Source: Spirochaetia bacterium | Lineage (GTDB): Bacteria; Spirochaetota; Spirochaetia; SZUA-6; Bin103 | Assembly (NCBI GenBank): GCA_965208575.1 | Contig: CBDBOV010000005.1 | Location: 1,024,001-1,088,000, forward strand | DNA: 64,000 nucleotides | Direction: 5' to 3' | In this document: piece by piece, positions 25,188 through 63,847 of the stretch | Numbering within the stretch: the stretch's first letter is position 1 | Layout of the letters: each line of letters opens with the position of its first letter | Position numbers and translations under genes: made by a program | Notes under the pieces: model-generated | Told to the model about the DNA's origin: nothing | Databases searched by the model: none | What the model saw: only the letters and a program-made list of their open reading frames with translations

Positions 25188-25215
25188 GGTCCTCCCTTCC
25201 CTACTCGGTTCGTGC

Positions 25216-30510: not shown

Positions 30511-30573
30511 GGGTTCCTCCATGGAAATTGATGTGGTCGAGAGACGCTCGACGCGATCTCTCGTCCACGGTAG

Positions 30574-30590: not shown

Positions 30591-30673
30591 CCAATTCGGC
30601 CCCGGCATGGCTGATGATCGATCGTGCGTAGACCCACAGGTGCCTACGTTTGCGTAGGTGTATACGGTGGATG

Positions 30674-31696: not shown

Positions 31697-31751
31697 GCAG
31701 CGACCGCTACCGACTCGTCAAGATGCACCGAAAGGGTATAGTCTCCCTGTC

Positions 31752-33017
31752 GTGACGGTCTGCATAGTAACGCTTGGCACCCTTGGGGACGTACTGCCCC
31801 TATGCGCGTTGGGTGCCGGACTTACCCGCGCGGGCCACACCGTGCGCGTGGCCACGCACGATCACTACCGGCGCTTCGTGCTCGACCACGGGCTCGAGCA
31901 TGCATCCATGCCGCTGGATCCCGTGGAGTTGTTCAGCGGCGTGTGGGGCAGTGATTGGCTCGCTTCGCGCAACAACCCGCTGCGTTTCATGAGCGGGTTG
32001 GCAAGGGTGGGGCGCGCGGTCATTCCCCACATGACGCGCGATGCCCGCGCGGCGTGCGCCGGCGCGGACGCGGTGGTGTTCACCCCGTTGGGGATGGTGG
32101 CCCATCACATCGCCGAACAGCGCGGCATTCCCGCGTTCCTGGCAGCCCTGCAACCGATCACGCCGACCACCCGGTTCCCGAGCGTGGTGGCGCCGGCCGG
32201 GTTGCGTCTCGGCCGCGGTTACAACCTGTTGAGCCATCTCGCCACCGAGCAGGCGTTCTGGCTGCCGTGGCGCCGCCAGTTCAATCGCGTGCGCCGCGAA
32301 CAGTTCGACCTGCCGCCGATGCGCTTCGGCGGCGTCGCCCGGCAACTGCGCCGCCAGGGTACGCCGCACCTGTACGGGTTCAGCCCGCTGGTCGTGCCGC
32401 CGCCGGACGACTGGCCCGGATGGGCGCACGTCACCGGCTATTGGTTTCCGGCCACGCGCGACCTGTGGGGTGTGCCGGAGGAGTTGCAGCGGTTCCTGGA
32501 CGCCGGTCCGGCGCCGGTGTGCGTCGGCTTCAGCAGTCTCAAGGTGGACGATCCGGAGGCGCTGACGCGGACCGTCATGGCGGCGTTGCGCCGCGCCGGG
32601 CGGCGCGGCGTGCTGCTGCGCGGGTGGGGTGCGCTGCAGCCGGGGCAGCACGGCCCCGACATGCTGGTGATCGACTCGGCGCCCCACGACTACCTGTTCG
32701 AGCACGTTGCCGCGGTGGTGCATCCGGGCGGCGCCGGTACCAGCGCGGCGTCCCTGCGCGCCGGCATACCGTCGGTGGTGGTGCCCGGCTTCTCCGACCA
32801 GTTCTTCTGGGCCCAGCGCCTGGTCGCCCTCGGCGTGGCGCCGCCGCCGCTGCGCTGGCGCAATCTCGATGCCGCCGTGCTCGGCCATGCCATCGAGCGT
32901 GCCGCCACCGACACGGCAATCCGGCAGGCGGCCCAGGCCGCGCGCCGCCGACTGCGTGCCGAGGACGGCGTCGGACGGGCCGTCTCCACCATTCAGCACT
33001 ACTTGGAAGCGGCCTAG
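31752..33017 (+). CDS. GT1 glycosyltransferase, sterol 3-beta-glucosyltransferase/rhamnosyltransferase-like
   Basis: 'TLGTLGDVLP', 'LYGFSP..VP.P.DW', 'HVTGYWF', 'PHDYLF', 'VHPGGAGT', 'DQFFW'; start GTG 31752. Confidence 0.9.
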   Translation: MTVCIVTLGTLGDVLPLCALGAGLTRAGHTVRVATHDHYRRFVLDHGLEHASMPLDPVELFSGVWGSDWLASRNNPLRFMSGLARVGRAVIPHMTRDARAACAGADAVVFTPLGMVAHHIAEQRGIPAFLAALQPITPTTRFPSVVAPAGLRLGRGYNLLSHLATEQAFWLPWRRQFNRVRREQFDLPPMRFGGVARQLRRQGTPHLYGFSPLVVPPPDDWPGWAHVTGYWFPATRDLWGVPEELQRFLDAGPAPVCVGFSSLKVDDPEALTRTVMAALRRAGRRGVLLRGWGALQPGQHGPDMLVIDSAPHDYLFEHVAAVVHPGGAGTSAASLRAGIPSVVVPGFSDQFFWAQRLVALGVAPPPLRWRNLDAAVLGHAIERAATDTAIRQAAQAARRRLRAEDGVGRAVSTIQHYLEAA

Positions 33018-33070
33018 CCGCGCGTGGCCACACTCCCGCTGCATTCGAGCGGCGTGCCGGGCGGGCGCCG

Positions 33071-33838
33071 TCAGGCGCGCAGGTGAGTCCGGTCGCCCTC
33101 GAGGTTCAGCGTCAGCAACTTGAGGTACCATCGCTCACCGGTGAGCGCGGACCACAGCGTAAAGCGGCGTTGCGCCGCAACCCGGCACCCGTACAGGGTC
33201 TGGGTGCGTCCGGTGATGAAGTCTTGATTGTGCGGCTCCGCGATCTGCCCGTGCAGGCCGCGTATTCCCCGCTCGCACAGGTGCCGGATCAGGGCGTCGC
33301 CGAGGCGTACCATGCACAGGTAGATCAGGAACCCGTCGCGCTGCAACTCGGCGTCCACGCCGAGGTGGGCGTGCGCCGGGAACTGCCTCAGGTCCGCCTC
33401 CGGAACCTCACGCCAGCCGCGCGACAGCGCCCACCACAGGGTGCGGTAGGTGGCGATCCGCCGATAGCGGCCGGTGAGCAGCCGCGCCATCACCCGCACC
33501 GCGAGTTGCGGGCCGTAGCGCAGCAGCACCATGCGCTGGTAGCGGCGGGTGTCCTTGCAGCCCATGATGTAGCCGACCACGCGCCCGGCGCGCTCGGCGA
33601 CGAAGCAGGACTCCGGCTCGTAGCGCAGGTAGTAGTCCATGAACAGCTTGAGCAGCACCGGCTGGTCCTCGAAGAACGCGGCGAGAGGCCGCCCGCGCAG
33701 CGCGGTGGCGGCGATGATCGCCGCGATGCGGCGCCGGTCGCCGGCCCGGTAGGCACGGATGCGAAGGCGGCGCGCCGACGGCGCCGCGGACGCCCTGCGG
33801 TCCTGTTCCCAGACCCGGCTCGCCGATCGTTTGCTCAT
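33071..33838 (-). CDS. GNAT-like acyltransferase
   Basis: 'IRAYRAGD', 'YYLRYEPESCFVAE..GRVVGYIMG..DT', 'PAHAHLGV'; the CoA-binding Q/R-x-x-G-x-G motif is degenerate. Confidence 0.7.
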   Translation of the reverse strand: MSKRSASRVWEQDRRASAAPSARRLRIRAYRAGDRRRIAAIIAATALRGRPLAAFFEDQPVLLKLFMDYYLRYEPESCFVAERAGRVVGYIMGCKDTRRYQRMVLLRYGPQLAVRVMARLLTGRYRRIATYRTLWWALSRGWREVPEADLRQFPAHAHLGVDAELQRDGFLIYLCMVRLGDALIRHLCERGIRGLHGQIAEPHNQDFITGRTQTLYGCRVAAQRRFTLWSALTGERWYLKLLTLNLEGDRTHLRA

Positions 33839-33912
33839 GGCCGCCGCCAGCATACCACTCATCACCGCGTTGCCGTCCGCCCATGCGCGGGCGCAGCGCG
33901 CGCGGTGCCGCA

Positions 33913-36315
33913 ATGACCGGCGCCGGCACCCGTCCGCCGCGCACCGCCGCGCAGCGGGCGTTCGAGGTGGTCGCCCGCTCCGTGGCCCGCCACGGCACGG
34001 CGGTGCTGGCGGGCGTGGCCCTGGTTACCGCGGCCGCCGCCTGGCAGGCCGCGCGCATCGGCGTGGATGCCAACATCGCCGGCCTCCTGCCGCAGGATTC
34101 GCAGACGCGCCGGCTGATTGACGAGTACGGCGACACTACCGCGGCCAGCGAACTGCTGGTCGTCGGGGTGAGTCATCCTGAACTGCTGAGCCTGCCGCAG
34201 CTTGCCCGGGTGGGCGAGATCGACCGGCGCATAGCCGCACTGCCGGAAGTGGTCGGCAGCGTGACGCCGTTCAACGTGGTGACCTTCCAGCGGCGGCGCG
34301 GCGGCCTGGTGCTCGGGCCGCTGGCAGCCGGCGGCACGGCGCCGGCCAGCGCGGCCGCCCTGGCGGAGTTCGATGGCCGGCGGGAGGCGGCTCCGGACGT
34401 GCTGTCGGCGCTGCTCGATCCCGATATCGCCGCGGCGAGCATGATCTACTCGGTCGCGGTGCAGGGCGACTACGCGGACTTCCTGGCCCGGGTGCACGAC
34501 ATTCTCGCGCAACACGCGGCCGGGCTGTCGACGGCGCTCGGCGGGTGGCTTCCGCTCTACGAGGCTACCAGGCGCTACATCACCGGCGAGGTCCCGCTGC
34601 TGTCCGGACTGGCCGCACTCATCACCCTGCTGATGTACCTCGTGAGCTTCGCATCGCTGCGCGCGGTCATCCTGCCGCTGCTGACCATCTGCACCGCACT
34701 GCTGTGGACCTTCGGCCTGATGTCGCTGGCCGGCGTGCCGCTGAGCATGGCCAGCCTCATGCTGCCGCCACTGATCTTCGCGCTCGGCAGTTCCTACAGC
34801 ATCCACCTGCTGCACCGCTACTTCAGTACCGCGCGGGCGCGCGCCGCGGAGGCCGGGCCGGGCGGCGGGCCGGCGCCGCGGGCCACCCGCGCGCTGCGCG
34901 GCGTGGAGGTGGCGCGCGCCACCGCCGGCGTCAGCCAGACCATCATGCTCGCCGCTCTCACCACGGCCGCCGGCTTCGCGAGCCTGCTGCTCAGCGGCAT
35001 GCAGCGCGTGCGCGAGTTCGGGCTGTTCGCGGCACTCGGCATCGTGATGTGCGCACTGGTCACGATGCTGGTCTACCCGGCGGTACTGGCACGTTTGCCG
35101 CTGCCGGCGCCGCGCCTGCGGGACCGCCTGGAGAGCGGCTGGCTGGCGGCGCAGGTGATGCGCCTGCGCCGCCTGGTCCCGCGCCGGCCGCGCTGGGTGT
35201 ACGCGTTCCTGGCGGTGCTGGCGGGCGCGCTGGCCGTCTCCGCCGCCAATCTGAGCTATCAGACCGACGTAGCCGGCTTCTTTCGCGGATCGGTGGCGGC
35301 GGTGGAGGACAACCGCCTCCTGGTGCGGCGTTTTGGAAGCTACGTCGACCTGAACCTGACCGTCTCCGTGCCGGCATCGTCGGGCTTGCCGAGCGCCGAA
35401 ATCCTGCGCCGGCTCGACCGATTCGCGAGCGTGATGAGCGAGCATCCCGACGTGAGCCACGTGACCTCGATCACCGCCTACGCGCGGTCTCTGAACCAGG
35501 TTCTTACCGGGTCGCGGGAGTACCCGGACAACCGCGCGGTCGAGCAGCTCTTTCAGCGGCTGCTCGCGCTCGCGGCCGCGGATGGCACAGACCTCGGCGG
35601 GCTGCTCGACCTGGAGCGCCGGCGCGTGACCACGCGCATCTGGGTGCGCGACGGCGCCACCGGGTGGTTGCTGTCGGAGTCGGCGCTGAGCGCTCTGGTC
35701 GCCTCCGTGGAGGACACCGGGCGGCGCATCTTCGCCGCCGAGGCGGAGCCCGCGGTGTGGGGCTGGAGCATGGTCACCCTGCGCGTGGCGGAGCTGCTCA
35801 CTCGCGAGCAGTTCACCTCCACGGTGTTGTCTGCGCTGCTCGTGCTGCTCATCACCTCCGCGGCGTTTCGTTCGCTGCGCTTCGGATTGCTGACACTGCT
35901 TCCGCTGGTCACGGCGATCATGGTTACGTTTGTGGTGATGGCGGTTGCCGGGATTCCGTTCGACGTACTCACCGTCAGTTTCGCGGGCGTGGCGATCGGG
36001 GTAGGAGTGGATGACTCCATCCACTTCCTGTTGCACTACCGGCGGGCGGCGCGGCGCGACCCGCACACCGCCGTCGAGGTAGCGATGCAACACGCCGGGC
36101 GCGCGATCCTGATCACCACGGCGGCAATCGTGGCCGGCCTGCTGGCGCTCGCGGTCTCCCGCTTCCTGCCGGTGGTCTACCTGGGCATGCTGATCTCGGT
36201 CACGCTGATCGCCGCCACGTTCGGCACCCTGGTCCTGGTGCCGCCGCTGCTCGGCGGCCGGGGGCGCCGCCGTCTGCCGGGCCGCGCCGCGCAGCGCCAG
36301 GCGGCGGGCTCATGA
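33913..36315 (+). CDS. MMPL/RND-family lipid transporter
   Basis: Two repeats of TM + periplasmic domain + TM bundle; 'AALTTAAGFASL', 'VREFG', 'IGVGVDDSIHF', 'GRAILIT'. Confidence 0.9.
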   Translation: MTGAGTRPPRTAAQRAFEVVARSVARHGTAVLAGVALVTAAAAWQAARIGVDANIAGLLPQDSQTRRLIDEYGDTTAASELLVVGVSHPELLSLPQLARVGEIDRRIAALPEVVGSVTPFNVVTFQRRRGGLVLGPLAAGGTAPASAAALAEFDGRREAAPDVLSALLDPDIAAASMIYSVAVQGDYADFLARVHDILAQHAAGLSTALGGWLPLYEATRRYITGEVPLLSGLAALITLLMYLVSFASLRAVILPLLTICTALLWTFGLMSLAGVPLSMASLMLPPLIFALGSSYSIHLLHRYFSTARARAAEAGPGGGPAPRATRALRGVEVARATAGVSQTIMLAALTTAAGFASLLLSGMQRVREFGLFAALGIVMCALVTMLVYPAVLARLPLPAPRLRDRLESGWLAAQVMRLRRLVPRRPRWVYAFLAVLAGALAVSAANLSYQTDVAGFFRGSVAAVEDNRLLVRRFGSYVDLNLTVSVPASSGLPSAEILRRLDRFASVMSEHPDVSHVTSITAYARSLNQVLTGSREYPDNRAVEQLFQRLLALAAADGTDLGGLLDLERRRVTTRIWVRDGATGWLLSESALSALVASVEDTGRRIFAAEAEPAVWGWSMVTLRVAELLTREQFTSTVLSALLVLLITSAAFRSLRFGLLTLLPLVTAIMVTFVVMAVAGIPFDVLTVSFAGVAIGVGVDDSIHFLLHYRRAARRDPHTAVEVAMQHAGRAILITTAAIVAGLLALAVSRFLPVVYLGMLISVTLIAATFGTLVLVPPLLGGRGRRRLPGRAAQRQAAGS

Positions 36316-49137: not shown

Positions 49138-50214
49138 TCACGGCGCCGAAATCGGGACCGGTTGCACACGTTTCGACGCCTGCTCGACGCGGCTGACGTG
49201 CAGCTTGATCGTTGCCGCATCGCTGCTCGCCCGTTGCACCGCGGCGGCCGTTTCGGCCATCGGCATGACGCCGGTGATCAGCGACTCGACTTCGATGCGG
49301 CGCGCGGCCAGCAGCGCCGCGCCGACCCGAAAGGCGCCGGCAAAGCGGAACGATCCGACCACGCGCAGCTCGCGCGCCATGATGGTGTTGAGCGGCGCCG
49401 CGAACGGTTGTTGCAGGGTGCCGATCTGCACCACGGTTCCGCCCGCGGCGGTGTGCTGCAGCGCCCACCGGAACGATGCCTCGGCGCCGGCGGCCTCGAA
49501 GGTCACCTCCGGGGCGCCGCCGTTCGCCATCGCGCGGGCTGAGGCCTGTTCGTCGCCGGGATCGAGCACCGCGTCGGCACGTGCGGCCGCCGCCTCCCGC
49601 GCCGCGCCGCGCGGGTCGCTCACCACCACCCGCACGGCGCCGAGCGCGCGCGCCACGGTGGCCACCAGCAGGCCGATGGTGCCGGCGCCGCTCACCGCCA
49701 CCACCTTGCCGGCGACGCCGTCCGCGCGCAGCACGGCATGGCATGCGACCGCCAGCGGCTCCAGCAGCGCGCCCACCGCGTAGCTCAGGTGGTCATCGAG
49801 CCGGTAGCAGTTGGCCGCCGGGACCGCCTTCAGGCCGCACAACACGCCGTCGGTGGGCGGGTCGGTGGCGGCGCTGCCGAAGTAGCGCATCTGCGGGCAC
49901 AGGTTGGAGCGCCCGCGCCGGCACCACGAACAGCGCAGGCACGCCCGCGACGGGTCCACCGCCACCCGGTCGCCGACCGCGATGCCGCCGGCCGCGCGCC
50001 CGACCGCGACCACCTCGCCGGCGAACTCGTGGCCGAGTATGAACGGACGCGACGGCACGAACGCGCCGACCCGCCCGTGCCGATAGTAGTGGATGTCGCT
50101 GCCGCAGATGCCCACCCGCTCCACGCGTACCAGCACCTCGTGGTCGTCCGGCCGCGGGTCGGGGCGCAGTTCGCGGCGCAGATCGTGCGTGCCGTGCAAT
50201 ACCCAGGCGTCCAT
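49138..50214 (-). CDS. Zn-dependent sugar-alcohol/L-idonate dehydrogenase (MDR)
   Basis: 'GICGSDIHYY', 'LGHEFAG', structural Zn 'CLRCSWC...NLC', 'EPLAVACHA', 'GAGTIG', 'GSFRF'. Confidence 0.9.
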   Translation of the reverse strand: MDAWVLHGTHDLRRELRPDPRPDDHEVLVRVERVGICGSDIHYYRHGRVGAFVPSRPFILGHEFAGEVVAVGRAAGGIAVGDRVAVDPSRACLRCSWCRRGRSNLCPQMRYFGSAATDPPTDGVLCGLKAVPAANCYRLDDHLSYAVGALLEPLAVACHAVLRADGVAGKVVAVSGAGTIGLLVATVARALGAVRVVVSDPRGAAREAAAARADAVLDPGDEQASARAMANGGAPEVTFEAAGAEASFRWALQHTAAGGTVVQIGTLQQPFAAPLNTIMARELRVVGSFRFAGAFRVGAALLAARRIEVESLITGVMPMAETAAAVQRASSDAATIKLHVSRVEQASKRVQPVPISAP

Positions 50215-50331: not shown

Positions 50332-50775
50332 ATGACCGCATCTCCGGCCCGGCGCACACCGGTCAGCGTCCGCCGTGCCCGAATCGTCGATACGCTCCTG
50401 ATCGCCCTGGTCGTGTTCGACCTCGTCGTGGCGGTCGGCGCATTCCTGTTTCCGCAGCTCTGGTACCGGATCCTGCACGGCGCCGAGCACGTGGATCCGG
50501 CGGGTCTGCTGAGGCGCACCGGAGCAATCTGGGTGGCGTTCACGGTCGTGCAGGTGCTCGCGCTGCCGCGCTGGCGTACCGCTCCCCACTGGCTGGTCCT
50601 GGTGTGCGGCATCCGGCTCAGCGAGCTGTTCGCCGACTGGACCTGGCTGGTGTTCGCCGAGCAGGTGACGCCGTTCGGCACCGCCGCGCTGCTGTTCACC
50701 CTGCCTGCCAACCTGCTGATCTGCTGGTTTCTGTTCGCCACCTACCGGCACGCGGTGCGGGAGCGCTCGGAGTAG
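50332..50775 (+). CDS. Hypothetical 4-TM membrane protein
   Basis: 147 aa, four hydrophobic segments carrying D/E/R/Q residues; high-GC3 codon usage; TATACT 9 nt upstream. Confidence 0.75.
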   Translation: MTASPARRTPVSVRRARIVDTLLIALVVFDLVVAVGAFLFPQLWYRILHGAEHVDPAGLLRRTGAIWVAFTVVQVLALPRWRTAPHWLVLVCGIRLSELFADWTWLVFAEQVTPFGTAALLFTLPANLLICWFLFATYRHAVRERSE

Positions 50776-50861
50776 CCGGGGATGCGATCCACCTGCGGGC
50801 CGGGCCCGGCGCGGCCCGCGAGCGGCGTTCGAGTTGGCGGCGGTCGCCGCTCGCGGGTGCG

Positions 50862-51881
50862 ATGCGAGTCCTGGTAACGGGAGGCGGCGGATTCGTCGGC
50901 CGCGCCGTCGTCGAGCGGCTGCTTGCCCGCGGCTACCAGGTGCGCTGCTTCGCCCGATCGGCCTACCCGGAACTGGCGGGCCGCGGGGTGGAAGTGATGC
51001 GTGGCGACCTGGCCGACCGGCGCGCTGCCGCGACTGCCTGCGCCGGCTGCGATGCGGTGGTGCACGCGGCGGCGCTGATCCCCGGCGTCGCCGAGCCGGC
51101 ACACCGCTACCGCGCCGTGAACGTGGGCGGCACGGAGGCGATCGTCGCCGGCTGCCGCGCCCATGGCGTGCCGCGGCTGGTATTCACCAGTTCGCCGAGC
51201 GTGGTGTTCGGCGGCCATGACCTGTGCGGGGTCGACGAGTCGGTTCCCTACCCGCGGCGCTACGACTCCCCCTACGCGCGTACCAAGGCGGAGGCCGAGC
51301 GCGTGGTGCTGGCCGCCAACGACGGCAGCCTGGCCACCACGGCGCTGCGGCCCCACCTGGTGTGGGGGCCGGGCGACGCGCACCTGGTGCCGGAGCTGAT
51401 CGCCCGGGCGCGCGCGGGCCGGCTGGTGCGCGTGGGGCGCGGCCCGTTCCGGGTCGACGTGACCTACATCGACTGCGCCGCCGAGGCGCACCTGCTGGCG
51501 CTCGACGCCCTGTCGCCCGGCAGCGCCGCGGCCGGCCGCGCCTACTTCATCTCGCAGGGCGAGCCGGTGGACCTGTGGCAGTTCGTCGGCCGGCTGCTGA
51601 ACATGGCCGGCGTAGCGCCGGTGCGCCGCCAGGTACCGCGCTGGCTGGCACTGGCCGCGGCCGGCGCCGTGGAGGGCGCGTTCCGAGTCTCCGGGCGCAC
51701 GGCGGCGCCGCCGCTGACCCGCTTCCTGGTGCGCGAGATCTCTTCCTCGCACTGGTTCGACACAGGCGCCGCGCGCCGCGACCTCGGCTACCGGCCGCCG
51801 GTTTCGATCGACGAGGGCCTCGTCCGGCTCGCGCGGTGGTGGCAGGCCGGCGGCGCAGCAGTCGGCGGTTACCGCGGCTAG
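50862..51881 (+). CDS. OleD-like 2-alkyl-3-oxoacyl reductase / 3-beta-HSD-family extended SDR
   Basis: 'MRVLVTGGGGFVG', 'YPEL...GV...RGDLAD', 'FTSSPSVV', 'YARTKAEAER.VLAAND', 'LRPHLVWGPGD', 'TYID.AA.AH', 'PLTRFL', 'ARRDLGY.P.VSIDEGL' match OleD as recalled over the whole length. Confidence 0.82.
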   Translation: MRVLVTGGGGFVGRAVVERLLARGYQVRCFARSAYPELAGRGVEVMRGDLADRRAAATACAGCDAVVHAAALIPGVAEPAHRYRAVNVGGTEAIVAGCRAHGVPRLVFTSSPSVVFGGHDLCGVDESVPYPRRYDSPYARTKAEAERVVLAANDGSLATTALRPHLVWGPGDAHLVPELIARARAGRLVRVGRGPFRVDVTYIDCAAEAHLLALDALSPGSAAAGRAYFISQGEPVDLWQFVGRLLNMAGVAPVRRQVPRWLALAAAGAVEGAFRVSGRTAAPPLTRFLVREISSSHWFDTGAARRDLGYRPPVSIDEGLVRLARWWQAGGAAVGGYRG

Positions 51882-53485
51882 CCGGTCTTCCAGTCGACCA
51901 GCTCGCTGAGCACCAGCATGCCGTCGTGCGGCATGCCGGGGTAGGTGTAGCCGGCCTGGCCGAGCGGCGGCACGTTGCTTACGCCGCGCGCCGCGATCCG
52001 CACCGCAAGCTCGCGTCGGCGCGGCTCGGGATACACCCCGGCGGTTGCCACGCCGGGATGCAGGAAGCGCAGCGCGCGCTCCAGGCTGGCTACCGGGCGG
52101 ACCACGATGAGCCGGCACAGCGGGTGCTCGGTGATGTTGAACTCCTGCGGCATCACCGCCACCGCGGAGTGGAACTCGCCGTCGGCACGGTTCTCGAACC
52201 AGGTGGCGCCCAGGAAGCTGCCGCGCTTCATGCGCCGGATCTGGCCCTGCTGGCTCCGGCTCAGCGCGGCCGGCGCGAAGCGGTCCCAGCGCCCGAGCTC
52301 GTCGCGCAGCGCGGCGGCGTAGCGCTCGGCGCCCGCCTGGTCCGCCTCCAGGTAGTGGATCTGCGAGGCGATGCACGCCTTCTGGCTTTGGATCAGCGTG
52401 TCGCACACCGCGCGGCCCACCACCTGCGGCAGGTCGTCGAACGCCTCGCGTCCGATCAGGCTTACGCCGTAGCGCGGGTTGAAGGTCACGGTCTTGGTGA
52501 AGGCGGCGCGCTCGCGCACCGACAGCACCGCGCCGGGGGCGCCCCACACCACGATGCGGTCGTAGCGGCCCGGCAGGAACAGCGGCGCCTCGAACTGCTC
52601 GTCGCCGCCCGGCCAGTACAGCACCGACAGGTGGCGGGTAAGCGGATGATCGGGAAAGGTGCGCGCGGCCAGCAGGGCCAGGTAGGCGCCCGCCAGGGTG
52701 GCGCCGTACGGCAGCTTGATGGTCGCGGCCGACTTGGTCCACAGGGCGCGCAGGAGCGAGGCCAGCGGCACCAGCGGCGAGTTGCCGGCGGTAATGTGGA
52801 GTTGGCGGGTGGGCAGGGCGCGCAGGCGCGGCACCGCGGCGGCGGGGTCGTAGCCGGCGATCGGCGGCAGATGCTGGGCGTGGATCAGGTGCACGGGAGC
52901 GGGATACACGGTGCCCGGCACCTCCACCCAGCCATCCAGGAAGCGCCGCCCCGGTATCTCCCAGGTAGCCAGGTCGGTGTCCACCATGGTCTCGGCGACG
53001 GCGCCCGCAAGCATCACCGGGAACATCGCAAAACCCGCTTCCACGTAGGGATCCGGTGCCTCCGACGTGGCGCGCACCCATGCCTTGACCTGGCGCAGCA
53101 ACTCCGCGTCGGCGCCGTACGCCTGCTGCAGGCCGTCCACGTAGCGCACCACGTCGCCGAATTCGAGGTCGTACAGCCCCGCGGCGAGCGTATCGAGATC
53201 GTCCTCCACCAGGTCGAGCGGCGTCACCTCCGGCAGCACCTGGTACTGCCAGGCGCCGGAGGCACGCATCGAGGCGCGGTCCAGTACCGGCTCACGCAGC
53301 ACCCACGCCCCGTTCAACCTGACCAGGGTCGGGGGATCGCCGCCGCCGCGCTGCCGCTCTTCGGTCGCGAAGGCGGCCTCGATTTCCCGCCTGCCGACCG
53401 CCGGCGGCGCAACCAGCGTGCCGCGCACCAGCGCCGGCACCGAGATTACGCCGTCGTCATCGGCCGCAATGGTCGGCTCGTCCAT
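51878..53485 (-). CDS. LuxC-like acyl-CoA/acyl-protein reductase
   Basis: 'HITAGNSP', 'LLRALWTKSAATIK', 'YWPGGD', 'IVVWG', catalytic 'QKACIAS', C-terminal 'PHDGMLVLSELV'. Confidence 0.85.
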   Translation of the reverse strand: MDEPTIAADDDGVISVPALVRGTLVAPPAVGRREIEAAFATEERQRGGGDPPTLVRLNGAWVLREPVLDRASMRASGAWQYQVLPEVTPLDLVEDDLDTLAAGLYDLEFGDVVRYVDGLQQAYGADAELLRQVKAWVRATSEAPDPYVEAGFAMFPVMLAGAVAETMVDTDLATWEIPGRRFLDGWVEVPGTVYPAPVHLIHAQHLPPIAGYDPAAAVPRLRALPTRQLHITAGNSPLVPLASLLRALWTKSAATIKLPYGATLAGAYLALLAARTFPDHPLTRHLSVLYWPGGDEQFEAPLFLPGRYDRIVVWGAPGAVLSVRERAAFTKTVTFNPRYGVSLIGREAFDDLPQVVGRAVCDTLIQSQKACIASQIHYLEADQAGAERYAAALRDELGRWDRFAPAALSRSQQGQIRRMKRGSFLGATWFENRADGEFHSAVAVMPQEFNITEHPLCRLIVVRPVASLERALRFLHPGVATAGVYPEPRRRELAVRIAARGVSNVPPLGQAGYTYPGMPHDGMLVLSELVDWKTG

Positions 53486-53494
53486 GGGTCGCCG

Positions 53495-54907
53495 TCAGCC
53501 CTGCATGGCGGCCATGATGCCGCCGCAGCCCTTTACCTCCCGTCCGGTAGCGCGCCCGATGTCGGAAATCGTCACGCCGCCCACCCCGCACGGGCAACCG
53601 CCGGTGCGGCGCCGCACGTTGTCGCCGGTGATGATGAATCCCGGATAGCAGGCCGCATAGGGATCGAGAAACCCGAAGCCGCCATGGATGTCGTCTCCGG
53701 TCACCGGCTCCAGGGCCTCGTCGAAGATCACCGTCTCGGTGATCGGCGGCACGTGGAAGCGGCCTTCGCGGCAGCGCGGGAACACCACCTGCGCCTCGGT
53801 CATCGAGTAACCCTCGTTGACGCGCTCCGGGCGGACGCCCAGGCTCTGCTCGATCAGCGCCAGGAACGCCGGCTCGTCGATCCGGTCGCCTTCGAAGCTC
53901 TTCCAGCCGCCGCCGTGAGACAGCATGCTGCCGGGCCGCAGTACGACTTCCTCGCCCTCCGCCACCAGCCACTCGCAGAACTCCTTGATCATGAACGGGG
54001 CGCCGAACAGCAGCGTTCGGCGGCGCGCGGCGATCGAGTCGCGCAGTGCGGCCAGCACGCGCCGGAAGTTGTCGGCCCGGCGCCGCACGGTGGCGTCCAG
54101 GAACGCATCGGAGAGCTGCCGTTCGCGCTCGTCGGCCGGACCGCGCACCAGCGCGCGCACCACCGTCGCCGACAGCTCCAGATCGAACAGAAAGGTGGCG
54201 CGCCCGACCATCCGGGCGAGCGTCTGCCCCACCACCTGCGTGCCCTGGGTACCGCCGGAGAACGACAGAAAGACGCCGTCGAAGCCGCGCAGGCCGCGGC
54301 GCCGGAAGAACTCGCCAAAGCCGTCCGGGCCGAGCATGCGCGCCGCGGTGCGGGCGGCGGTGCGTTCCCAGGCGCGCGCGGCGCCCTGGCGCATCTGAAA
54401 CAGGGGAATGTAGGACACCCCGAGCCCGGTAAGCTGCGACCAGGTGTAGGCATCGCGCGGGACGAACGAAATGTGCCCGCTGGTACCGGAACTGAATACC
54501 GTGTGGATGCCGTGCTCCGCCAGGCAGGCGAGCCATTGGTCGATCGAGGTCACGCCGTCGACGTCGGTTTCCACGGGACGGTCGAACACCTGCCGCAGCC
54601 AGCCATTCATGGCGCCGTAGTCGTGGTTGTCAATGTGTTCCTGGGGATACGACTTGAAGATGTGGTCGGTGGACATCATCTCGGCGGCGATCTGCGCCGT
54701 GTCGGCGTCGCGCTGCACCTCTGCCTGGTCGGCGAGCCGGCGATAGATCGGAACACGGTCGTAGTAGTGCCGGTGATTCGTGCGGATTGCCGCGAAGCGC
54801 AGTTTACGCGCATAATCCTCATCCACCGTACCGCTCATCGCCCAGCGCATTGCGAGGGCCGTGAGTTGCAGGTGGAGCGCGCGTATTTCGGCGTGGTGGT
54901 CAGACAT
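53495..54907 (-). CDS. LuxE-like acyl-protein synthetase (adenylate-forming)
   Basis: P-loop 'FSSGTSG', 'GGGWKS', 'YSMTE', 'FLDP....YPGFIITGD', C-terminal acylation motif 'GR..GREVKGCG'. Confidence 0.83.
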   Translation of the reverse strand: MSDHHAEIRALHLQLTALAMRWAMSGTVDEDYARKLRFAAIRTNHRHYYDRVPIYRRLADQAEVQRDADTAQIAAEMMSTDHIFKSYPQEHIDNHDYGAMNGWLRQVFDRPVETDVDGVTSIDQWLACLAEHGIHTVFSSGTSGHISFVPRDAYTWSQLTGLGVSYIPLFQMRQGAARAWERTAARTAARMLGPDGFGEFFRRRGLRGFDGVFLSFSGGTQGTQVVGQTLARMVGRATFLFDLELSATVVRALVRGPADERERQLSDAFLDATVRRRADNFRRVLAALRDSIAARRRTLLFGAPFMIKEFCEWLVAEGEEVVLRPGSMLSHGGGWKSFEGDRIDEPAFLALIEQSLGVRPERVNEGYSMTEAQVVFPRCREGRFHVPPITETVIFDEALEPVTGDDIHGGFGFLDPYAACYPGFIITGDNVRRRTGGCPCGVGGVTISDIGRATGREVKGCGGIMAAMQG

Positions 54908-55054
54908 GGGCCGCGATGCCGGCGCGCCAAACTACACAGGTTGGCCCTTCCCGGTCAACGGGCCGCTCGCACGTGGCGCAGCGGCGGATCGTGCCCTGTG
55001 CCCGCTAAGGATGTAGCAGTTGAACATGACCACGCGCCGACCCGGAGGCGCAGC

Positions 55055-57040
55055 GTGACCGCGAACACCAGCGTCGAGAGCCTCGGCGTCTATCTTCCCG
55101 AACGGGAAGTGACCACCACCGAAGTGGTAAAGGGCTGCCGGCGGCGCGTGTTGATTCCCCTGGAACGCCTGACCGGCATTCGCAGCCGGCGCATGGCCGG
55201 CGACACCGAGTTCTCCGTCGACCTGGCCCACAACGCGGTAGCGAGGTGCCTCGCCGGGTCGCGTCATGGCGCGGCGGATATCGACCTGATCGTCGCTGCC
55301 AATATCTCCAAGCAGGATTCGCCGCTTACCTACAACGTCGAGCCGACCACCGCCGCGGTGCTGCGCCGCCAGTTCGGCCTGCACCGCGCCCTTGCCTTCG
55401 ATCTGAGCAATGCGTGCGCCGGCGTATTCACGGCGATCATGGCGGTGGACGAGCTTATTCGGCGCGGTGACGTGCGCCGCGCGCTGGTGGTCAGCGGCGA
55501 GTACATCACCCATCTCACCGCCACCGCGCAGCGCGAGCTGCACGGGCTGCACGACGAACGGTTGGCGTGCCTGACCCTCGGGGATGCCGGCGTGTGCCTG
55601 CTGCTCGAGCACGGCGCGGGCTTCGACTTCATCGAAATCTACACCGTACCGGAGCACGCCGAGCTGTGCATTGCCCACTCTGCCGAGTCGCACGGGGCGA
55701 TCATGTTTACCGACTCGGTGCGCCTCGCTCGCGCCGGCATCGCCGAGGTTGTCACCCAGTACGAAAATGTCGCGGAGTCGGGCAGGGTCACCACCGAACC
55801 GCGCTACTTCATTCCGCACCAGACTTCCTCCAACTCGATCAAGGAAGCCACGCGCGCCACCAATCGCCGTCTCGGACGCCGCGTCTGCCACTCGGACAAC
55901 ATGGTGGACAACCTGCGGCACCGCGGCAACACGGCAACCACTTCGCACTGGGTAGCGGTCAAGGACCTGGTCGAGAGGTCTGCGTTGCAACCGGGCGATC
56001 GCGTGTTGTTCAGCATCACGGCGTCCGGGATCACCGTGGGCCTCGCTCAGTATCGCGTCGAGCAGTTCGCCGCCCGCATGGCGAACGGCGAGCCGGCGCC
56101 GCAGCCGCCACCGGCAGCCGCGTCGGACAACGCCGCGCGCGGTTACTACCGCGCCGTTCCCCCGGGTGAGCGCGTGCGGGTGAGCGCGGCGGCCACTGCT
56201 ACACCGGAAACGGATGCCGAACGCGGCAACGTCAAGCTCGCCGCGCATGCGGTGCGGCGTGCCCTGGACGCCGCGCACGCGCCGGCCGGCCAGCCGGGGC
56301 TGCTGGTGTATTCGGGGGTGTACCGGGAGGCGTTCATCTCCGAGCCGGCGCTGGCCACCATGGTGGCCAAGGAGCTGGGCATCAAGGGGTCTCGCCTCGA
56401 CCACAACGGGCCGCCGTTTCTGGCGTTCGACCTGATGAATGGACCGCCCGGCGTGTTGATGGCGTGCCAGGTAGCGGGTCGCATGCTGCTGTCGCGCGAC
56501 GGCGTGGCGGTGATCGCCGCCTCGGAGTTCAACGAAACCCCGGTCGACGGTCAGCCGCCGCTGGGACTGGCCAGTGCCGGCTCCGCCCTGGTGCTGGAGC
56601 GCAGTACCGGCCGGGCCGGCTTCCGCAGTTTCTTCGTCGACACGCATGCCGAGTACCTGGACTGGTACCGCGCGTACGCCTATACGGACGACTCGGGGCC
56701 GCCGCGGCTGCGCGTGGAACGCGACGACCGTCTGGCCGAGCGGCTGCCGGAGGCGGTGGCGGGGAGCGTGACCGAGCTGCTGCGCCGGGAGCGTGTTTCT
56801 CTCGACGACTTCGCGGTGATCTTTCCGCCGCAGCTTGGGCCGGAGTTCCTGGACCGGCTGGCGGACTGCCTCGGCGTGGAGCGCAGCAGGTTCGTGTCGT
56901 GCGGCGGCGGAAACCTGTTTACGGCCGCCCCGGCGGCGGGGTGGGAAGCGGCCGGCGCGCGCGCGGTCCCGGGCAGCCTGGGCCTGTTTCTTGCGGCCGG
57001 CGCCGGCATCGAAGTCGCCTGCGCCACCTACGAATTCTGA
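55055..57040 (+). CDS. Didomain KAS III/OleA-like condensing enzyme (active N-terminal + degenerate C-terminal thiolase-fold domain)
   Basis: GTG 55055 with GGAGG RBS. Domain 1: 'LTGIRSRR', 'VEPTTA', 'FDLSNAC', 'LTLGDAG', 'IPHQ', 'RGNT'. Domain 2: 'SEPALA', 'FDLMNGP', 'FPPQ', 'GNLF'. Confidence 0.85.
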   Translation: MTANTSVESLGVYLPEREVTTTEVVKGCRRRVLIPLERLTGIRSRRMAGDTEFSVDLAHNAVARCLAGSRHGAADIDLIVAANISKQDSPLTYNVEPTTAAVLRRQFGLHRALAFDLSNACAGVFTAIMAVDELIRRGDVRRALVVSGEYITHLTATAQRELHGLHDERLACLTLGDAGVCLLLEHGAGFDFIEIYTVPEHAELCIAHSAESHGAIMFTDSVRLARAGIAEVVTQYENVAESGRVTTEPRYFIPHQTSSNSIKEATRATNRRLGRRVCHSDNMVDNLRHRGNTATTSHWVAVKDLVERSALQPGDRVLFSITASGITVGLAQYRVEQFAARMANGEPAPQPPPAAASDNAARGYYRAVPPGERVRVSAAATATPETDAERGNVKLAAHAVRRALDAAHAPAGQPGLLVYSGVYREAFISEPALATMVAKELGIKGSRLDHNGPPFLAFDLMNGPPGVLMACQVAGRMLLSRDGVAVIAASEFNETPVDGQPPLGLASAGSALVLERSTGRAGFRSFFVDTHAEYLDWYRAYAYTDDSGPPRLRVERDDRLAERLPEAVAGSVTELLRRERVSLDDFAVIFPPQLGPEFLDRLADCLGVERSRFVSCGGGNLFTAAPAAGWEAAGARAVPGSLGLFLAAGAGIEVACATYEF

Positions 57041-57052
57041 TCCGGGAATCTT

Positions 57053-58099
57053 CTATTCGCGAATCGCGGCCGTGCGCAAGCCTCCGGCGGCCAGCACCAG
57101 CGCCAGCCCGGCGCGGAAGTCGATTTCCGGTCGAAACCCGAAGTCGCGGTACGAGCGGCTCATGTCGTAGAACACGTCGCGCGAGAGGTAGGCCAGCGCG
57201 TCGCGCGTTACCATGGCGCTCATGCCGGGGGCGAGCAACCGCACCGCCGCCGGCAGCAGCGGCCCGAGCAGCCGGCACAAGCCGGCGGGCACCGGCACTA
57301 TGGCCGGGGAAGACCGGCCGGTGAGTTCCGCATGCACGTCGAACAGGGCGCGCAGCGGCTGCGGATTGCCGGTAGCGGCGTTGTAGGTGGCGCCATCCGC
57401 CGCCGGAGCGGCCGCCGCCTGCACCATGAGGCGTGCGACATCGCTCACGTATCCGAAGTCGACCAGGTGGCGGCCGCCGTCCACCAGCGGAACGCGCCGC
57501 ATGCGCGCCATGGCCAGCGCGGCGGGCAGGAAGTGGCGGTCGCCCGGCCCATAGGTGGCGCTCGGCCGCACGATCGTGTAACCCAGCCCGCGCGCGCCGT
57601 ACTCGCGCACCACGCCTTCCGCTTCCACCTTGGAGCGTCCGTAGGCGGACAGCGGCGCCAGCGGGCTGTGCTCCCCGATCGGGGACGCCGCGCCGGGGCG
57701 ATAGACGCCGGTGGTACTGGCGAACACGAAGCGCCGTACGCCGGCATCGGTGCTCGCGGCGAGCATCCGCTCGGTCAGATCCACGTTGGCGGCGCGATAG
57801 GGCGCATAGTCCTCGCCGGCGCTGAACGGCGCGCCGGCGTGCAGATAGCCGGCAACGTGGAACACCGAGACCACGCCGCGCAGCGCGGCGGCGACGGCGG
57901 CGCGGTCGGACAGGTCGGCGCGCAGCACGTCGATGTTGGGGTGGCGGACGGCCGGCGGCCCGCTCGACGGGCGCAGCAGGCAGCGCACGGGATGGCCGGC
58001 GGCGGCCAGTTGGGCGGCCACTTCGCCGCCGATCATGCCGGAGGCGCCGGTGACCAGCGCCGGCGGACGGTCCGGTTCGCTGCGCCGCCTCGCCGTCAC
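57053..58099 (-). CDS. NAD-dependent epimerase/dehydratase, extended SDR (3-beta-HSD/HpnA-like)
   Basis: 'LVTGASGMIG', 'VFHVAG', 'FVFASTTGVY', 'YGRSK', 'RPSATYGPGD'; GTG start overlaps the GT1 stop. Confidence 0.88.
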   Translation of the reverse strand: MTARRRSEPDRPPALVTGASGMIGGEVAAQLAAAGHPVRCLLRPSSGPPAVRHPNIDVLRADLSDRAAVAAALRGVVSVFHVAGYLHAGAPFSAGEDYAPYRAANVDLTERMLAASTDAGVRRFVFASTTGVYRPGAASPIGEHSPLAPLSAYGRSKVEAEGVVREYGARGLGYTIVRPSATYGPGDRHFLPAALAMARMRRVPLVDGGRHLVDFGYVSDVARLMVQAAAAPAADGATYNAATGNPQPLRALFDVHAELTGRSSPAIVPVPAGLCRLLGPLLPAAVRLLAPGMSAMVTRDALAYLSRDVFYDMSRSYRDFGFRPEIDFRAGLALVLAAGGLRTAAIRE

Positions 58100-59379
58100 G
58101 ACGACCGCCCGTGCAGGCGGCGCCGGAGTGCGCGTACCGCGGTCGCCACGCCATCCTCGCTCCTGATCCGGGCCCCTATCTCGGCGGCGCGGGCACGCAC
58201 CGAGGGATCGGAGGCGGCGCTGCACAACGCGTCAGCCAGCCGGTCGGCGGTGAGGCGCCGCCGCGGCACCGGCCGCGGCCCCACTGCCAGTTCGTGCACC
58301 CGGCTGCCCCAGAAGTGCTGATCGCCGAAGAACGGCACCACCACCTGCGGCACGCCGTGGCGCAGGCCGGTGGCGGTGGTGCCGGCGCCGCCGTGATGGA
58401 TCACCGCGGCCGTGCGCGGGAACAGCCAGTCGTGCGGTACCCAGTCGAGCATCAGCATGTCGGGTGGAAGTTGCGCCGGGGTGAGGCCGCCCCAGCCGGT
58501 GGCCAGCACGCCGCGCAGCCCGCAGCGGCGCAGCGCGCTGAACACGATACCGGTGAGATCCTCCTCGCCGTCGCTGCTCATGCTGCCGAATCCGACATAC
58601 ACCGGCGGTGCGCCGCCGGCGAGGAAGCGCTGCAACTGTGCATCCGGGCGCCAGCCGTCGCCGTCCTCGTCCAGGAACCAGTAGCCGGTCACCTGGACGT
58701 GGTCGTCCCAGTCGGCCGGGCGCGGCAGCACCGCCGGGCTGAACCCGTACAGCAGGAGACTGCCGCGCAGGTTGGACGCGAACGTGTGCCGGCGCGGCGC
58801 CGGAGGCAGCTCCAGGAGGTCGGCTCGTACCGCGTTGGTGGGCGCACGCAGCACGTGCCAGAGCAGAAACTCGACCAGCCGGTGACTGGCGTAATTGTAC
58901 GTGCGGCGCACCGGCGCCGGTCCCGGCAACTCGTGGAAGAACACCGACGGCAGGTACCCGCTCGGGGTGGCAGGCTGCAGGAACGCCGCGGCCAGCGGCA
59001 CCTCGAGCCGCTCCGCGAGGTTCCAGGCGGCGAAGTAACCGAGCAGTCCGGTCACGATTGCCTCGGCGTCGCGGCATGCCCGGAAGCAATCGTTCATCAG
59101 CTCCTGGCCGAAGGAGAGCGCGAGTTCGCGGAAGTGGCGGATGAACAACAGCGGGTTGGTGCCGCTGCGCACCCAGCCGCGGCCGAGGCGGCTGTCGATG
59201 ATGTCGCGTGGATTGACCTCGACGGCGCGGAAGCCGAGCCCGCGGTCGGTCACCATCCTCTCGAAATAGCGGTGCGTGGCGAAGATGACCTGTTCGCCGG
59301 CGCGGCTCAGACCCTCGGCGAGGGCGAGCAACGGACGAACGTCCCCGTGGGTGCCGAGAGCGACGACGCAGATGCGCAT
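58096..59379 (-). CDS. GT1 glycosyltransferase, sterol 3-beta-glucosyltransferase-like
   Basis: '[10 protein letters not shown]', '[15 protein letters not shown]', 'VTGYWFL', '[10 protein letters not shown]', 'PHDWLFP', 'IHHGGAGTT', '[10 protein letters not shown]'. Confidence 0.92.
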
Positions 59380-62192: not shown

Positions 62193-63494
62193 TCATCCCG
62201 CGATATCGAGCCGATGCGCCGCGTCGATGCGGGCGGCCACGGCACCCGGCACTCCTGCCTGCCCGGCGAACTCCGGCCAGCGCCGCACGGCCTCTCCGAC
62301 CTGGCCCAGAATGTCGGAGGCACGGCCACGCTGCATGGCGGCGTTGCGCGCGCAAGCGACGAAGTCGTCTGCCGCGAAGCGGTCGCGTTTGCCGTTCAGG
62401 GACATCTGGTGAACGCCGGTCCAGGATCCTGATGGGTTGTAGCTATAGGTGACGTCGAATGCGGGTGCGAGCGACCAGCGCCCCGACCGATCCATCAGGA
62501 ACGCGATGTTCTTGACGTGGTCGTCCTGGTTGCGAGCGACCACGTTGAACGCCATGCGGCGGAACTGCTCCTCCACTGCATCCTTGCCAAGCTCCAGTTG
62601 TTCGATCACGCGGAGCGCTTGCTCGTAGGAGTGGGCGCCGGCCTGGTTGAAGTCGAAGTGCGCCATCGCGCCGAGCGACAGCAGGTGAATCTTGTCGCCT
62701 GCCGCGGATCGGTCGAAGCGCCTGGTCATGAAGTGATCGCGTCCGCCCTCGCGCAGGATTCGGCACGCGGCCATGGTGATGCCCGCGGCTCGAGCCATCA
62801 GGTGATAAGCGTATTCGATCAGTCCGTATCCACGTGGATCCTCGAGCTCGCGGTCACGGTTCCCGGCTACCCCGTCGAACTTCAGCAGCCAGGAGGAGAA
62901 CCGGTCGCCGGCGGAGACCTGCCCGGAACGCACCTCGCCGGTGGTAGGATTCCAGGCGATGATCGCCTTGGCGCGGGCGCCGCCGGCCGAGGTACCCACG
63001 CGGAGGATGCTTTGCAGCGCCTGCTGCCGCCGGTGCGCCGTGAAGGAGCCGGCGAGACTCCTCCGGTTCGTGAGTATCTCACCCGCCAGTTCGACGAGAG
63101 CCGCCACCTCTACCGCGGACTGTCGATGGGCGGGGCCGGTGGCCGGCACGAACTCCAGGGCTCCCATGCCGCGTTCGCCGACGTAACAGAGCCGTTCCAC
63201 CGGATTGAAGTCGCCCGGAGCGCGACCCTGTGCGGCCAGCCAGGCGTCGATGAGTGCGTGGCCGAAGCGGTCGGGGAGCGAGTCGGCAAGCAGTCCCGGA
63301 AGTCCGTGGAACGTCTCCCGCGCCAGGGCGGGGAACGAGTAGATGCCGGCGGCCAGCGGCATCGTGAGCGGGGCAACCTGCCGGCCGCTTGGCAGAAAAT
63401 CCGGAGCGTACTCGAAGGCGGCGTAGCCACGTTCGTCATCCCAGGTCACGGCGCCGATCGTGGTACCCCACATGAGCGCTTCGGCCACCGTCAT
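62193..63494 (-). CDS. hipA: HipA-family kinase toxin
   Basis: N-terminal couple_hipA ('LADSLPD.FG', 'GERGMGALEF'), P-loop 'GTSAGGARAK', 'LLKFD', 'RRFDR', 'NQDDHVKN', 'LAPAFD'. Confidence 0.93.
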   Translation of the reverse strand: MTVAEALMWGTTIGAVTWDDERGYAAFEYAPDFLPSGRQVAPLTMPLAAGIYSFPALARETFHGLPGLLADSLPDRFGHALIDAWLAAQGRAPGDFNPVERLCYVGERGMGALEFVPATGPAHRQSAVEVAALVELAGEILTNRRSLAGSFTAHRRQQALQSILRVGTSAGGARAKAIIAWNPTTGEVRSGQVSAGDRFSSWLLKFDGVAGNRDRELEDPRGYGLIEYAYHLMARAAGITMAACRILREGGRDHFMTRRFDRSAAGDKIHLLSLGAMAHFDFNQAGAHSYEQALRVIEQLELGKDAVEEQFRRMAFNVVARNQDDHVKNIAFLMDRSGRWSLAPAFDVTYSYNPSGSWTGVHQMSLNGKRDRFAADDFVACARNAAMQRGRASDILGQVGEAVRRWPEFAGQAGVPGAVAARIDAAHRLDIAG

Positions 63495-63847
63495 GGCTCA
63501 TCGCCCCAGGTCCATGCCGCGGGGCGCTCACGGATGTGGGTGCCGCCCGGTGAGGACGCGCGGCGGCGCAGCTTGCCGCTCATTCTGAGCTGCTGCATCG
63601 GGCTCGCCGGCGGCTCGGGGACGAGGCCGTCGAGGTGCTCCAGCAACTTGAGGGCGCGCAGGATTCGGATCAGGCTGGAAGCCTGACACGACCTGCCCTG
63701 CTCCAGGCGCTGTACCGTCGGCGCCGAGACCCCCGCCTCGACAGCCAGCGCCGCCTGGGTGAGATTCCGGTTCAGCCGATGGCGCGCAATGCGGGCGCCC
63801 AGTTCCTGCATCGCGGCGGTGTCGTTGGTATGGTGGGTGATCCTCAT
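63491..63847 (-). CDS. XRE/HTH antitoxin (HipB-like)
   Basis: 'LGARIARHRLNRNLTQAALAVEAGVSAPTVQRLEQG'; ATGA overlap with hipA. Confidence 0.85.
   Translation of the reverse strand: MRITHHTNDTAAMQELGARIARHRLNRNLTQAALAVEAGVSAPTVQRLEQGRSCQASSLIRILRALKLLEHLDGLVPEPPASPMQQLRMSGKLRRRASSPGGTHIRERPAAWTWGDEP

Follow-up and report, generated by a model that had tools for sequence, protein, structure and literature searches.

The ole pathway employs a thiolase (OleA), a reductase (OleD), a beta-lactone synthetase (OleC) and a decarboxylase (OleB), and the mycolic acids, which are 2-alkyl-3-hydroxy acids, are made by Pks13 and CmrA. Here we consider a block of seven genes at positions 50332–59379 of a 64,000-nucleotide stretch of DNA from a Spirochaetia bacterium (assembly GCA_965208575.1, contig CBDBOV010000005.1; the whole stretch is called the window below), in which genes for a fused condensing enzyme of the KAS-III family and for an OleD-like reductase stand beside genes for LuxE-like and LuxC-like proteins. 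The cluster is real and co-conserved, and it is a variant on the ole/lst pathway. The reading we favor, with a probability of roughly one half, is that it encodes head-to-head fatty-acid condensation of the ole/lst type with a Lux-type fatty acid reductase taking over from OleC and OleB.

Several described systems resemble the locus, each in part. With oleABCD it shares a KAS-III-fold enzyme having Glu-Pro and Cys-His-Asn, and an OleD-like neighbor, and in the same phylum there are split homologs of the condensing enzyme in an operon with OleC, OleD and a hydrolase. It differs in that searches of the window and its genome gave neither OleC nor OleB, LuxE/LuxC, a second short-chain dehydrogenase/reductase (SDR) and a GT1-type glycosyltransferase being there instead, and in that its condensing enzyme appears to be a fused pseudo-heterodimer where OleA is a homodimer. 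In the lipstatin and nocardiolactone beta-lactone clusters, LstAB and NltAB comprise a Cys-His-Asn part and a Glu part, as do the halves of the window enzyme (PMC12141560), though the latter is a single fused chain with no beta-lactone synthetase in attendance, and the likeness is one of described residues and not of aligned sequences. The LuxC-LuxE pair of lux operons is matched in family membership (PF05893, PF04443), in the two catalytic cysteines, in the SSGTSG motif and in gene adjacency; however, no luxA, luxB or luxD was found and the window proteins are some 60–100 residues longer than their Lux counterparts. Finally, the predicted intermediate has the 2-alkyl-3-hydroxy acid motif of mycolic acids, but those come from an unrelated type I polyketide synthase (PKS) where a KAS-III would serve here, and their carboxylate is esterified whereas in our proposal it is reduced. 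In the literature searched, with subscription journals mostly outside the search, no cluster was found in which LuxC/LuxE accompany OleD and an OleA/LstAB-type enzyme, which agrees with the novelty claimed in a preliminary description of the locus, and among the papers listed no mention of a 2-alkyl-1,3-diol was found either.

Since the window has about 70% G+C and many spurious long open reading frames (ORFs), genes were chosen by third-position G+C together with family matches (Pfam, NCBIfam). By these means all seven genes which the preliminary description had delimited were recovered at their coordinates with the domain content it gave them. Its list of absences from the window also held: in the window's own genome (95% complete) the best match to the OleC model NF045786, with 64 bits, is not in the window, LuxD (PF02273) has zero matches in that genome, the carrier domain (PF00550) has four matches in the genome and none in the window, and no PKS or luciferase family was met among 45 window ORFs scanned, small ORFs having been only partly covered.

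The condensing enzyme

The KAS-III gene (55055–57040, plus strand) has a GTG start behind GGAGG and encodes 661 residues with ACP_syn_III and ACP_syn_III_C domains. In the N-terminal half, nine family members of 37–86% identity and the split homologs considered below all have E96-P97, C121, H255 and N292 unchanged. The C-terminal half has lost Cys and His, and its E430-P431 is invariant in nine fused members and in the split members; the Glu-Pro of head-to-head enzymes stands some 25 residues ahead of the Cys and is supplied by the partner subunit. In the alignment to FabH, E96 takes the position of the Phe in the ‘FP’ motif. The protein has the thiolase/KAS-III fold with a Cys-His-Asn triad, with template-modeling scores of up to 0.90 on the target against FabH and OleA, and its AlphaFold2 model (predicted local distance difference test 86, predicted template-modeling score 0.91) is one compact two-domain body in which only the linker, residues 350–359, is disordered.

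A Glu followed by Pro is reported to be the hallmark of OleA, where Glu117 reaches into the partner subunit as base (PMC7064751). PpyS (PMC4578411) and NocG (PMC9486936) cannot do without the equivalent Glu, and in the lipstatin system LstB supplies an essential Glu and pairs with the Cys-His-Asn triad of LstA (PMC12141560). Because of this reported role of Glu and the division of residues between the two halves, the window KAS-III is best read, by its motifs, as a fused LstA/LstB-type pseudo-heterodimer. It carries the signature of head-to-head (non-decarboxylative, OleA/LstAB) condensation, and activity of that kind is predicted for it. Natural fusions of LstAB are reportedly hinted at in a review which cites the original LstAB paper.

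The family is not large, with 270 representatives at E <= 1e-30 among 1.84 billion sequences, and some of its members merit description in their own right. The KAS-III didomain often ends proteins of the non-ribosomal peptide synthetase (NRPS) or PKS-NRPS type (L005:6587-12043, L010, L009, P0125-P0251), for instance in the arrangement C-A-T-KASIII-KASIII, a position which suggests chain release by Claisen condensation. In a Saprospiraceae metagenome-assembled genome (MAG; L004:9989-16105) the genes after the didomain are those of a fatty-acid hydroxylase, a fatty-acid desaturase and a GH3-family protein. An MMPL exporter follows it in L006 and L007, the former also having a methyltransferase and a LolA-like gene. 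A homolog in a Planctomycetota MAG (L009:10001-11995) is broken by four stop codons, with its matches spread over three frames, and may be a pseudogene or reflect assembly errors.

The OleD-like reductase and ole-type operons of the same phylum

The extended SDR encoded at 50862–51881 (plus strand) had been called OleD-like, and is so by a wide margin: OleD (NF042422) is its best family at 378.7 bits in a full-length match (positions 1–329), with HpnA next at 141, and in Pfam it matches 3Beta_HSD at E 2.6e-51. It is predicted to be a 2-alkyl-3-oxoacid reductase. Its identity is 49% to a gene of ole-type operons in the same phylum (L095/L097) and 47–50% to one in a second, distant lineage described below, and an OleD-like gene lies near an OleA-type condensing enzyme in all three settings, namely the window, the second lineage and L095-L097.

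When 401 genomes of the phylum were scanned, full-length KAS-III was found in the window's own genome only, with matches to the N-terminal half alone in nine genomes of another family. The gene order in L095:2159-10156 and in L097 is KS-A, KS-B, OleC-like ligase, OleD-like, a small ORF and an alpha/beta hydrolase. KS-A is 37% identical to the N-terminal half of the window enzyme and KS-B 28–33% to its C-terminal half, and the two have between them the residue pattern of those halves. The OleC-like protein of L095 scores 585 bits with NF045786, below the cut-off of 900, and 678 bits with PRK09274, above the cut-off of 478; that of L096 scores 555 bits with NF045786. We infer that the hydrolase corresponds to OleB. 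Neither LuxC nor LuxE is present in the L095/L097 operons. To KS-A, KS-B, OleD-like and OleC-like genes L096 adds a divergent GT1 homolog (27% identity).

With the split KAS-III and OleD-like homologs thus keeping company with an OleC-like ligase and a hydrolase, and no OleC having been found in the window's genome, LuxE and LuxC appear to occupy the place of OleC and OleB. This comparison is the strongest support for the replacement which the preliminary description had put forward. As a separate matter, L096 also has a weak PapA5-like acyltransferase.

LuxE and LuxC

The LuxE-like acyl-protein synthetase (53495–54907, minus strand, 470 residues) matches PF04443 with 72.3 bits (E 4.5e-20) and the LuxC-like acyl-protein or acyl-CoA reductase (51878–53485, minus strand, 535 residues) matches PF05893 with 129.9 bits (E 1.5e-37), both above the Pfam cut-offs. 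The LuxC gene starts 9 bp after the LuxE gene, and LuxE diverges from KAS-III across 147 bp (54908–55054), presumably a shared promoter region. Each protein has a single match in the Protein Data Bank (PDB), to chains of 7xc6 (7xc6_E for LuxE-like, 7xc6_A for LuxC-like), with E-values of about 1e-13 to 2e-13 and only the C-terminal parts aligned. Within these parts the catalytic Cys of LuxC is matched (QKAC against QQAC; LuxC Cys296), as are the SSGTSG motif of LuxE and the cysteine of a C-terminal KGC (C460, equivalent to LuxE Cys364), and K458, G459 and C460 are invariant in 27 relatives. The residue roles are known from LuxC Cys296 and LuxE Cys364, the acyl-Cys of LuxE sitting on a flexible C-terminal loop (PMC9157457).

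Proteins of this kind, of about 470 and 535 residues, form a family with 449 matches whose named sources are Acidobacteriota, Chloroflexota, Desulfobacterota and Myxococcota. With near relatives left out, LuxC is beside LuxE in 64 of 79 metagenome loci, following it in 63 and preceding it in L029. Where it was missed (15 loci) the flank was of 518 bp or less in 13, the others being L031 (1330 bp) and L073 (1965 bp). A classical SDR is a frequent companion of the pair or of the didomain, its family being present in 12 of 87 clustered loci (L004-L090), ten of the 12 being LuxE loci. The LuxE/LuxC pair, often near a classical SDR, may be a general module for taking acid to aldehyde to alcohol.

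Distribution and co-conservation

How far do these genes travel together? Within the window's order (92 genomes) KAS-III is present in all ten genus-mates, and neither the sister genus (13 genomes) nor the other families (68) had it. LuxE was found in eight of the ten genus-mates, always 150–620 bp from the KAS-III gene, and in none of the 13 of the sister genus. The whole block keeps its synteny in L001, L002, L003/L099, L100 and L011, with L008 a partial contig. By itself such synteny within a genus is weak evidence since it goes on past either end of the block. The two genus-mates without LuxE are G406 (90% complete), whose KAS-III gene (60% identity) adjoins a methyltransferase, and G404 (81% complete), whose KAS-III gene (39%) adjoins a reductase of the old yellow enzyme type. 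Neither has an orthologue of the cluster GT1 or of the OleD-like gene, while both keep a GT1 paralogue.

A five-gene core of OleD-like, LuxE, LuxC, classical SDR and fused KAS-III recurs at 36–50% identity in the second lineage (L013/L014, L018/L019 and, in part, L012). Its order there is OleD-like on the minus strand, LuxE and LuxC on the plus strand, classical SDR on the minus and fused KAS-III on the plus. Of all the loci, these have the LuxE most like that of the window (48–50%). They stand for two or three genomes, the LuxE of L013 and L018 being 81% identical. Since the LuxE of a record named Acidisarcina is 78% identical to theirs, this second core-bearing lineage is probably acidobacterial. 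Following the second-lineage core there is a B12-radical-SAM gene (L013, L014, L018), then a fatty-acid desaturase (L013, L014) and PAP2 (L014), neighbors which may tailor the same lipid.

Some details of these flanks, at L014:11821-15471 and L018:7248-10462, can be added: the B12-binding radical SAM protein has a DUF4070 domain, and L018 has a type III PKS-like gene as well, which may likewise tailor the lipid.

As to habitat, the nearest genome records are Spirochaetia MAGs, and four runs labeled as sponge metagenomes, from four studies, have contigs 90–99% alike that leave none of the 30 bins of the stretch uncovered. A single contig from a sponge run spans 53889–58435.

Proposed pathway

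As a first step the fused KAS-III would, on its motifs and context, condense two acyl thioesters without decarboxylation to a 2-alkyl-3-oxo acid, with the acyl group on Cys of the N-terminal half and Glu of the C-terminal half acting as base. The OleD-like SDR, to go by family and context, would then yield the 2-alkyl-3-hydroxy acid. In the third step LuxE would adenylate the free carboxylate and pass the acyl group via its C-terminal Cys to LuxC, which would reduce it to the aldehyde; the chemistry is read from conserved catalytic residues and the substrate from context only. No LuxD having been found, the free acid for LuxE needs another source, and the OleA-type reaction releases free acid. 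That free carboxylates are the substrates of LuxE and OleC alike, that LuxD was not found and that the genes co-travel across phyla all lend support to this step.

In the fourth step a further reductase would give the 2-alkyl-1,3-diol. The candidate in the second lineage is the classical SDR; in the window there are two. The second extended SDR (SDR2) is encoded on the minus strand from 57053 to about 58105, with an uncertain start in an ORF open to 58225, and has an Epimerase domain (E 2.9e-43). A zinc-dependent alcohol dehydrogenase (Zn-ADH; 49138–50196, minus strand; ADH_N and ADH_zinc_N) lies just outside the block, divergent from its first gene, and is adjacent and syntenic in L001, L002, L003/L099, L100 and L011 at 72–85% identity. 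Its membership of the cluster is uncertain; synteny runs past it too, so that it marks no boundary. With SDR2 ambiguous (see below) and Zn-ADH conserved next door, the reduction after LuxC may fall to either, and for taking aldehyde to alcohol Zn-ADH is just as good a candidate. The making of a diol by the second SDR, as first proposed, is accordingly one candidate route.

The fifth step, confined to the spirochaete genus, would be glycosylation of the product by GT1 (58096–59379, minus strand). Its gene immediately precedes that of SDR2, which has the same orientation, and the alignments of GT1 with its relatives begin at the ATG of position 59379. GT1 has a Glyco_transf_28 N-terminal domain with EryCIII-like_C/UDPGT (Pfam). 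The designation of it as sterol-type was apt: its best solved relative, over residues 5–422 and so its full length, is yeast sterol 3-beta-glucosyltransferase (UGT51; 5xvm/5gl5) at E 1.5e-61, the next PDB match being GtfA at 4e-32. This nearest solved relative glycosylates a lipid alcohol, the secondary 3-beta-hydroxyl of sterols.

A glycosyl 2-alkyl-1,3-diol, if made, would be a two-tailed lipid free of glycerol and of ester bonds, an all-carbon analog of glycosylceramide. Simplexides and clathrosides are sponge glycosides with two long alkyl chains of bacterial type, a sugar head and no glycerol (PMC4229102, PMC6163716). The cluster, for its part, occurs in sponge-labeled metagenomes. It is doubtful, though worth stating, that the spirochaete genus of sponge metagenomes makes such a glycosyl diol, that the pathway or a close variant is a bacterial source of glycolipids of the simplexide/clathroside kind, which engage CD1d, and that soil Acidobacteriota make the non-glycosylated diol lipid. 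Were the proposal true, a branch in which a branched acid undergoes Lux-type reduction and glycosylation would mean a new lipid class, and the widespread LuxE/LuxC-like pairs of non-luminous bacteria would have a new job. It would also offer a gene-to-molecule hypothesis for those sponge glycolipids that have two tails and no glycerol, some of them modulators of immune cells via CD1d. The version in the second lineage may be reachable in cultivable Acidobacteriota, which would make the idea testable.

Alternative explanations

A number of observations weigh against the pathway just proposed, and they are gathered here with the alternatives. Some bear on gene assignment: the OleD-like reductase does not reach the NF042422 cut-off of 580, and in NCBIfam equivalog scores LuxC-like (75.2 against 750 bits) and LuxE-like (57.4 against 550) do not reach theirs. 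There were no RNA runs among the sequencing runs matching the stretch. Others bear on whether the seven genes belong together at all. Their strands, in order, are plus, plus, minus, minus, plus, minus, minus, so that there are at least four transcription units and the block is not the one operon it was first taken for. OleD-like is beside LuxE in only three of 43 loci having at least 1100 bp of upstream flank, and KAS-III in three of 19 having at least 3500 bp downstream, while six of ten genome loci with the didomain lack LuxC/LuxE. GT1, SDR2 and the small membrane protein TM4 are confined to the spirochaete genus and absent from the second lineage. Co-conservation, which the preliminary description had named as a check, is thus borne out in a distant lineage for OleD-like, LuxE, LuxC and KAS-III, and for GT1, SDR2 and TM4 does not go beyond one genus. 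SDR2 is itself equivocal: its NCBIfam scores are 124 bits for OleD, 122 for HpnA and 69 for GalE, and its best PDB matches are sugar-nucleotide epimerases (MoeE5, 1.7e-22), ahead of NSDHL (9e-14). It could be an aldehyde or keto reductase or a sugar-nucleotide epimerase, the latter being the reading that tells against our proposal.

Might three units simply be juxtaposed, KAS-III with OleD-like giving a branched acid or ketone, LuxE with LuxC giving ordinary fatty aldehyde or alcohol, and GT1 with SDR2, as glycosyltransferase and sugar epimerase, acting on some other acceptor such as host sterols? The transcription units, the many LuxE/LuxC pairs that occur without the other genes, the resemblances of SDR2 to UDP-sugar epimerases and of GT1 to sterol glucosyltransferase, and the genus synteny that continues on both sides would all be in keeping with this. 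Against it, a distant lineage has the five-gene core too, at 36–50% identity, the two LuxE-less genus-mates have also been without the cluster GT1 and OleD-like orthologues while keeping the GT1 paralogue, and a GT1 homolog accompanies the split KS-OleD-OleC genes of L096. We regard mere juxtaposition as rather improbable.

Another alternative has the 2-alkyl-3-oxo acid losing CO2 to a mid-chain ketone, which an SDR would reduce to a secondary alcohol for GT1 to furnish with sugar, giving a simplexide-like product, with LuxE/LuxC serving another purpose such as supply of fatty aldehyde or alcohol. It is the route that suits simplexides better than the LuxE/LuxC one, since their aglycone has no further functional group. 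A secondary hydroxyl is what the nearest solved relative of GT1 acts on, near-identical pieces of the cluster are present in the sponge-labeled runs of four studies, and OleA products do decarboxylate to ketones (compare NocG; PMC9486936). However, this leaves the cross-phylum co-location of LuxE/LuxC with OleD-like and KAS-III unexplained, and the second lineage has no GT1. Moreover, going by the chemistry of beta-keto and beta-hydroxy acids, reduction of the OleD type stabilizes the acid against decarboxylation. Decarboxylation to a secondary alcohol is in our view unlikely, and the same holds for the separate role it would leave to LuxE/LuxC.

The carrier question is a third consideration. 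By our own count 46 of the best 150 relatives of KAS-III form the C-terminal end of proteins of at least 1000 residues, and in such long-protein loci examined (L005, L009, L010) the neighbors are NRPS/PKS. These long fusions and neighbors indicate that carrier-bound substrates are common for the family; the absence of a carrier domain from the window is a further difficulty for our proposal. Conceivably the C-terminal acyl-Cys tail of LuxE loads KAS-III in place of carrier domains, with reductive release by LuxC and a similar end product. The many relatives fused to or near NRPS C-A-T modules fit this, as do the flexible loop on which the LuxE acyl-Cys sits (PMC9157457), the drawing by NocG of both its substrates from one FAAL-ACP (PMC9486936) and the divergence of the LuxE and KAS-III genes from their common 147-bp region. 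It is at odds with the stand-alone family members that have neither LuxE nor a carrier nearby (L004, L006, L007, L101), and with the split homologs of ole-type operons being beside OleC, which acts on free acid. Loading by LuxE is possible but has little probability in our estimation.

What of the condensing enzyme itself? The preliminary description had an OleA-like didomain; the head-to-head motifs bear this out, and plain similarity of the N-terminal half does not, FabH (1ub7, phmmer E 3.6e-16) being nearer than the OleA of X. campestris (3row, 5.5e-7). A Foldseek search with the model has FabH at ranks 1–18 and OleA from rank 20, the fold not separating the two. The case for OleA-type character is made by motifs and gene context. 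That KAS-III is an ordinary FabH starting fatty-acid synthesis, as these best sequence and fold matches would have it, is very improbable and we reject it, given a 661-residue pseudo-dimer whose second half is without Cys and His, Glu in place of the FabH Phe, a separate FabH-like gene elsewhere in the genome (C6:439749-440699) and a gene not found in the sister genus or the order's other families.

Remaining genes of the block and its surroundings

The first gene of the block, TM4 (50332–50775, plus strand), encodes 147 residues with four hydrophobic segments by hydropathy and has no Pfam or NCBIfam family; it ends 86 bp upstream of the OleD-like gene. In genus-mates its identity is 70–80% and that of SDR2 is 70–85%. 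The small proteins that L006, L013 and L014 encode beside KAS-III or OleD-like genes showed no homology to TM4 (phmmer E > 0.3). Its nearest Atlas cluster (score 0.96, a lead only) is nameless and commonest in Acidobacteriota. A plus-strand ORF of 1938 residues (51224–57040), which runs antisense through LuxC and LuxE, was set aside as an artifact of high G+C except for its last 661 codons. Sterols or hopanoids of the bacterium's own were likewise discounted as acceptors for GT1, as no squalene cyclase domain was found in its 95%-complete genome; host sterols could still serve.

At 30674–36315 there are a PIG-L-type deacetylase (minus strand), the GT1 paralogue (31620–33017, plus), which is 43% identical to the cluster GT1, an unassigned ORF and an MMPL/sterol-sensing-domain exporter (33718–36315, plus). 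Together they look like a module for lipid glycosylation and export. The preliminary description had linked the genes of 30.7–37.0 kb to the block, a link now weakened: those of 30.7–36.3 kb were rejected as part of the cluster because G406 and G404, neither of which has the full cluster, have retained the paralogue, and in G406 it is about 500 kb from the KAS-III gene.

Elsewhere in the window, urease subunits and a UreG-like GTPase adjoin an ABC transporter of the branched-chain/urea type, with binding protein, permease and two ATPase genes (19719–30879), and a HipA-like kinase gene with HipA_C and Couple_hipA domains lies beyond the block at 62193–63497 on the minus strand.

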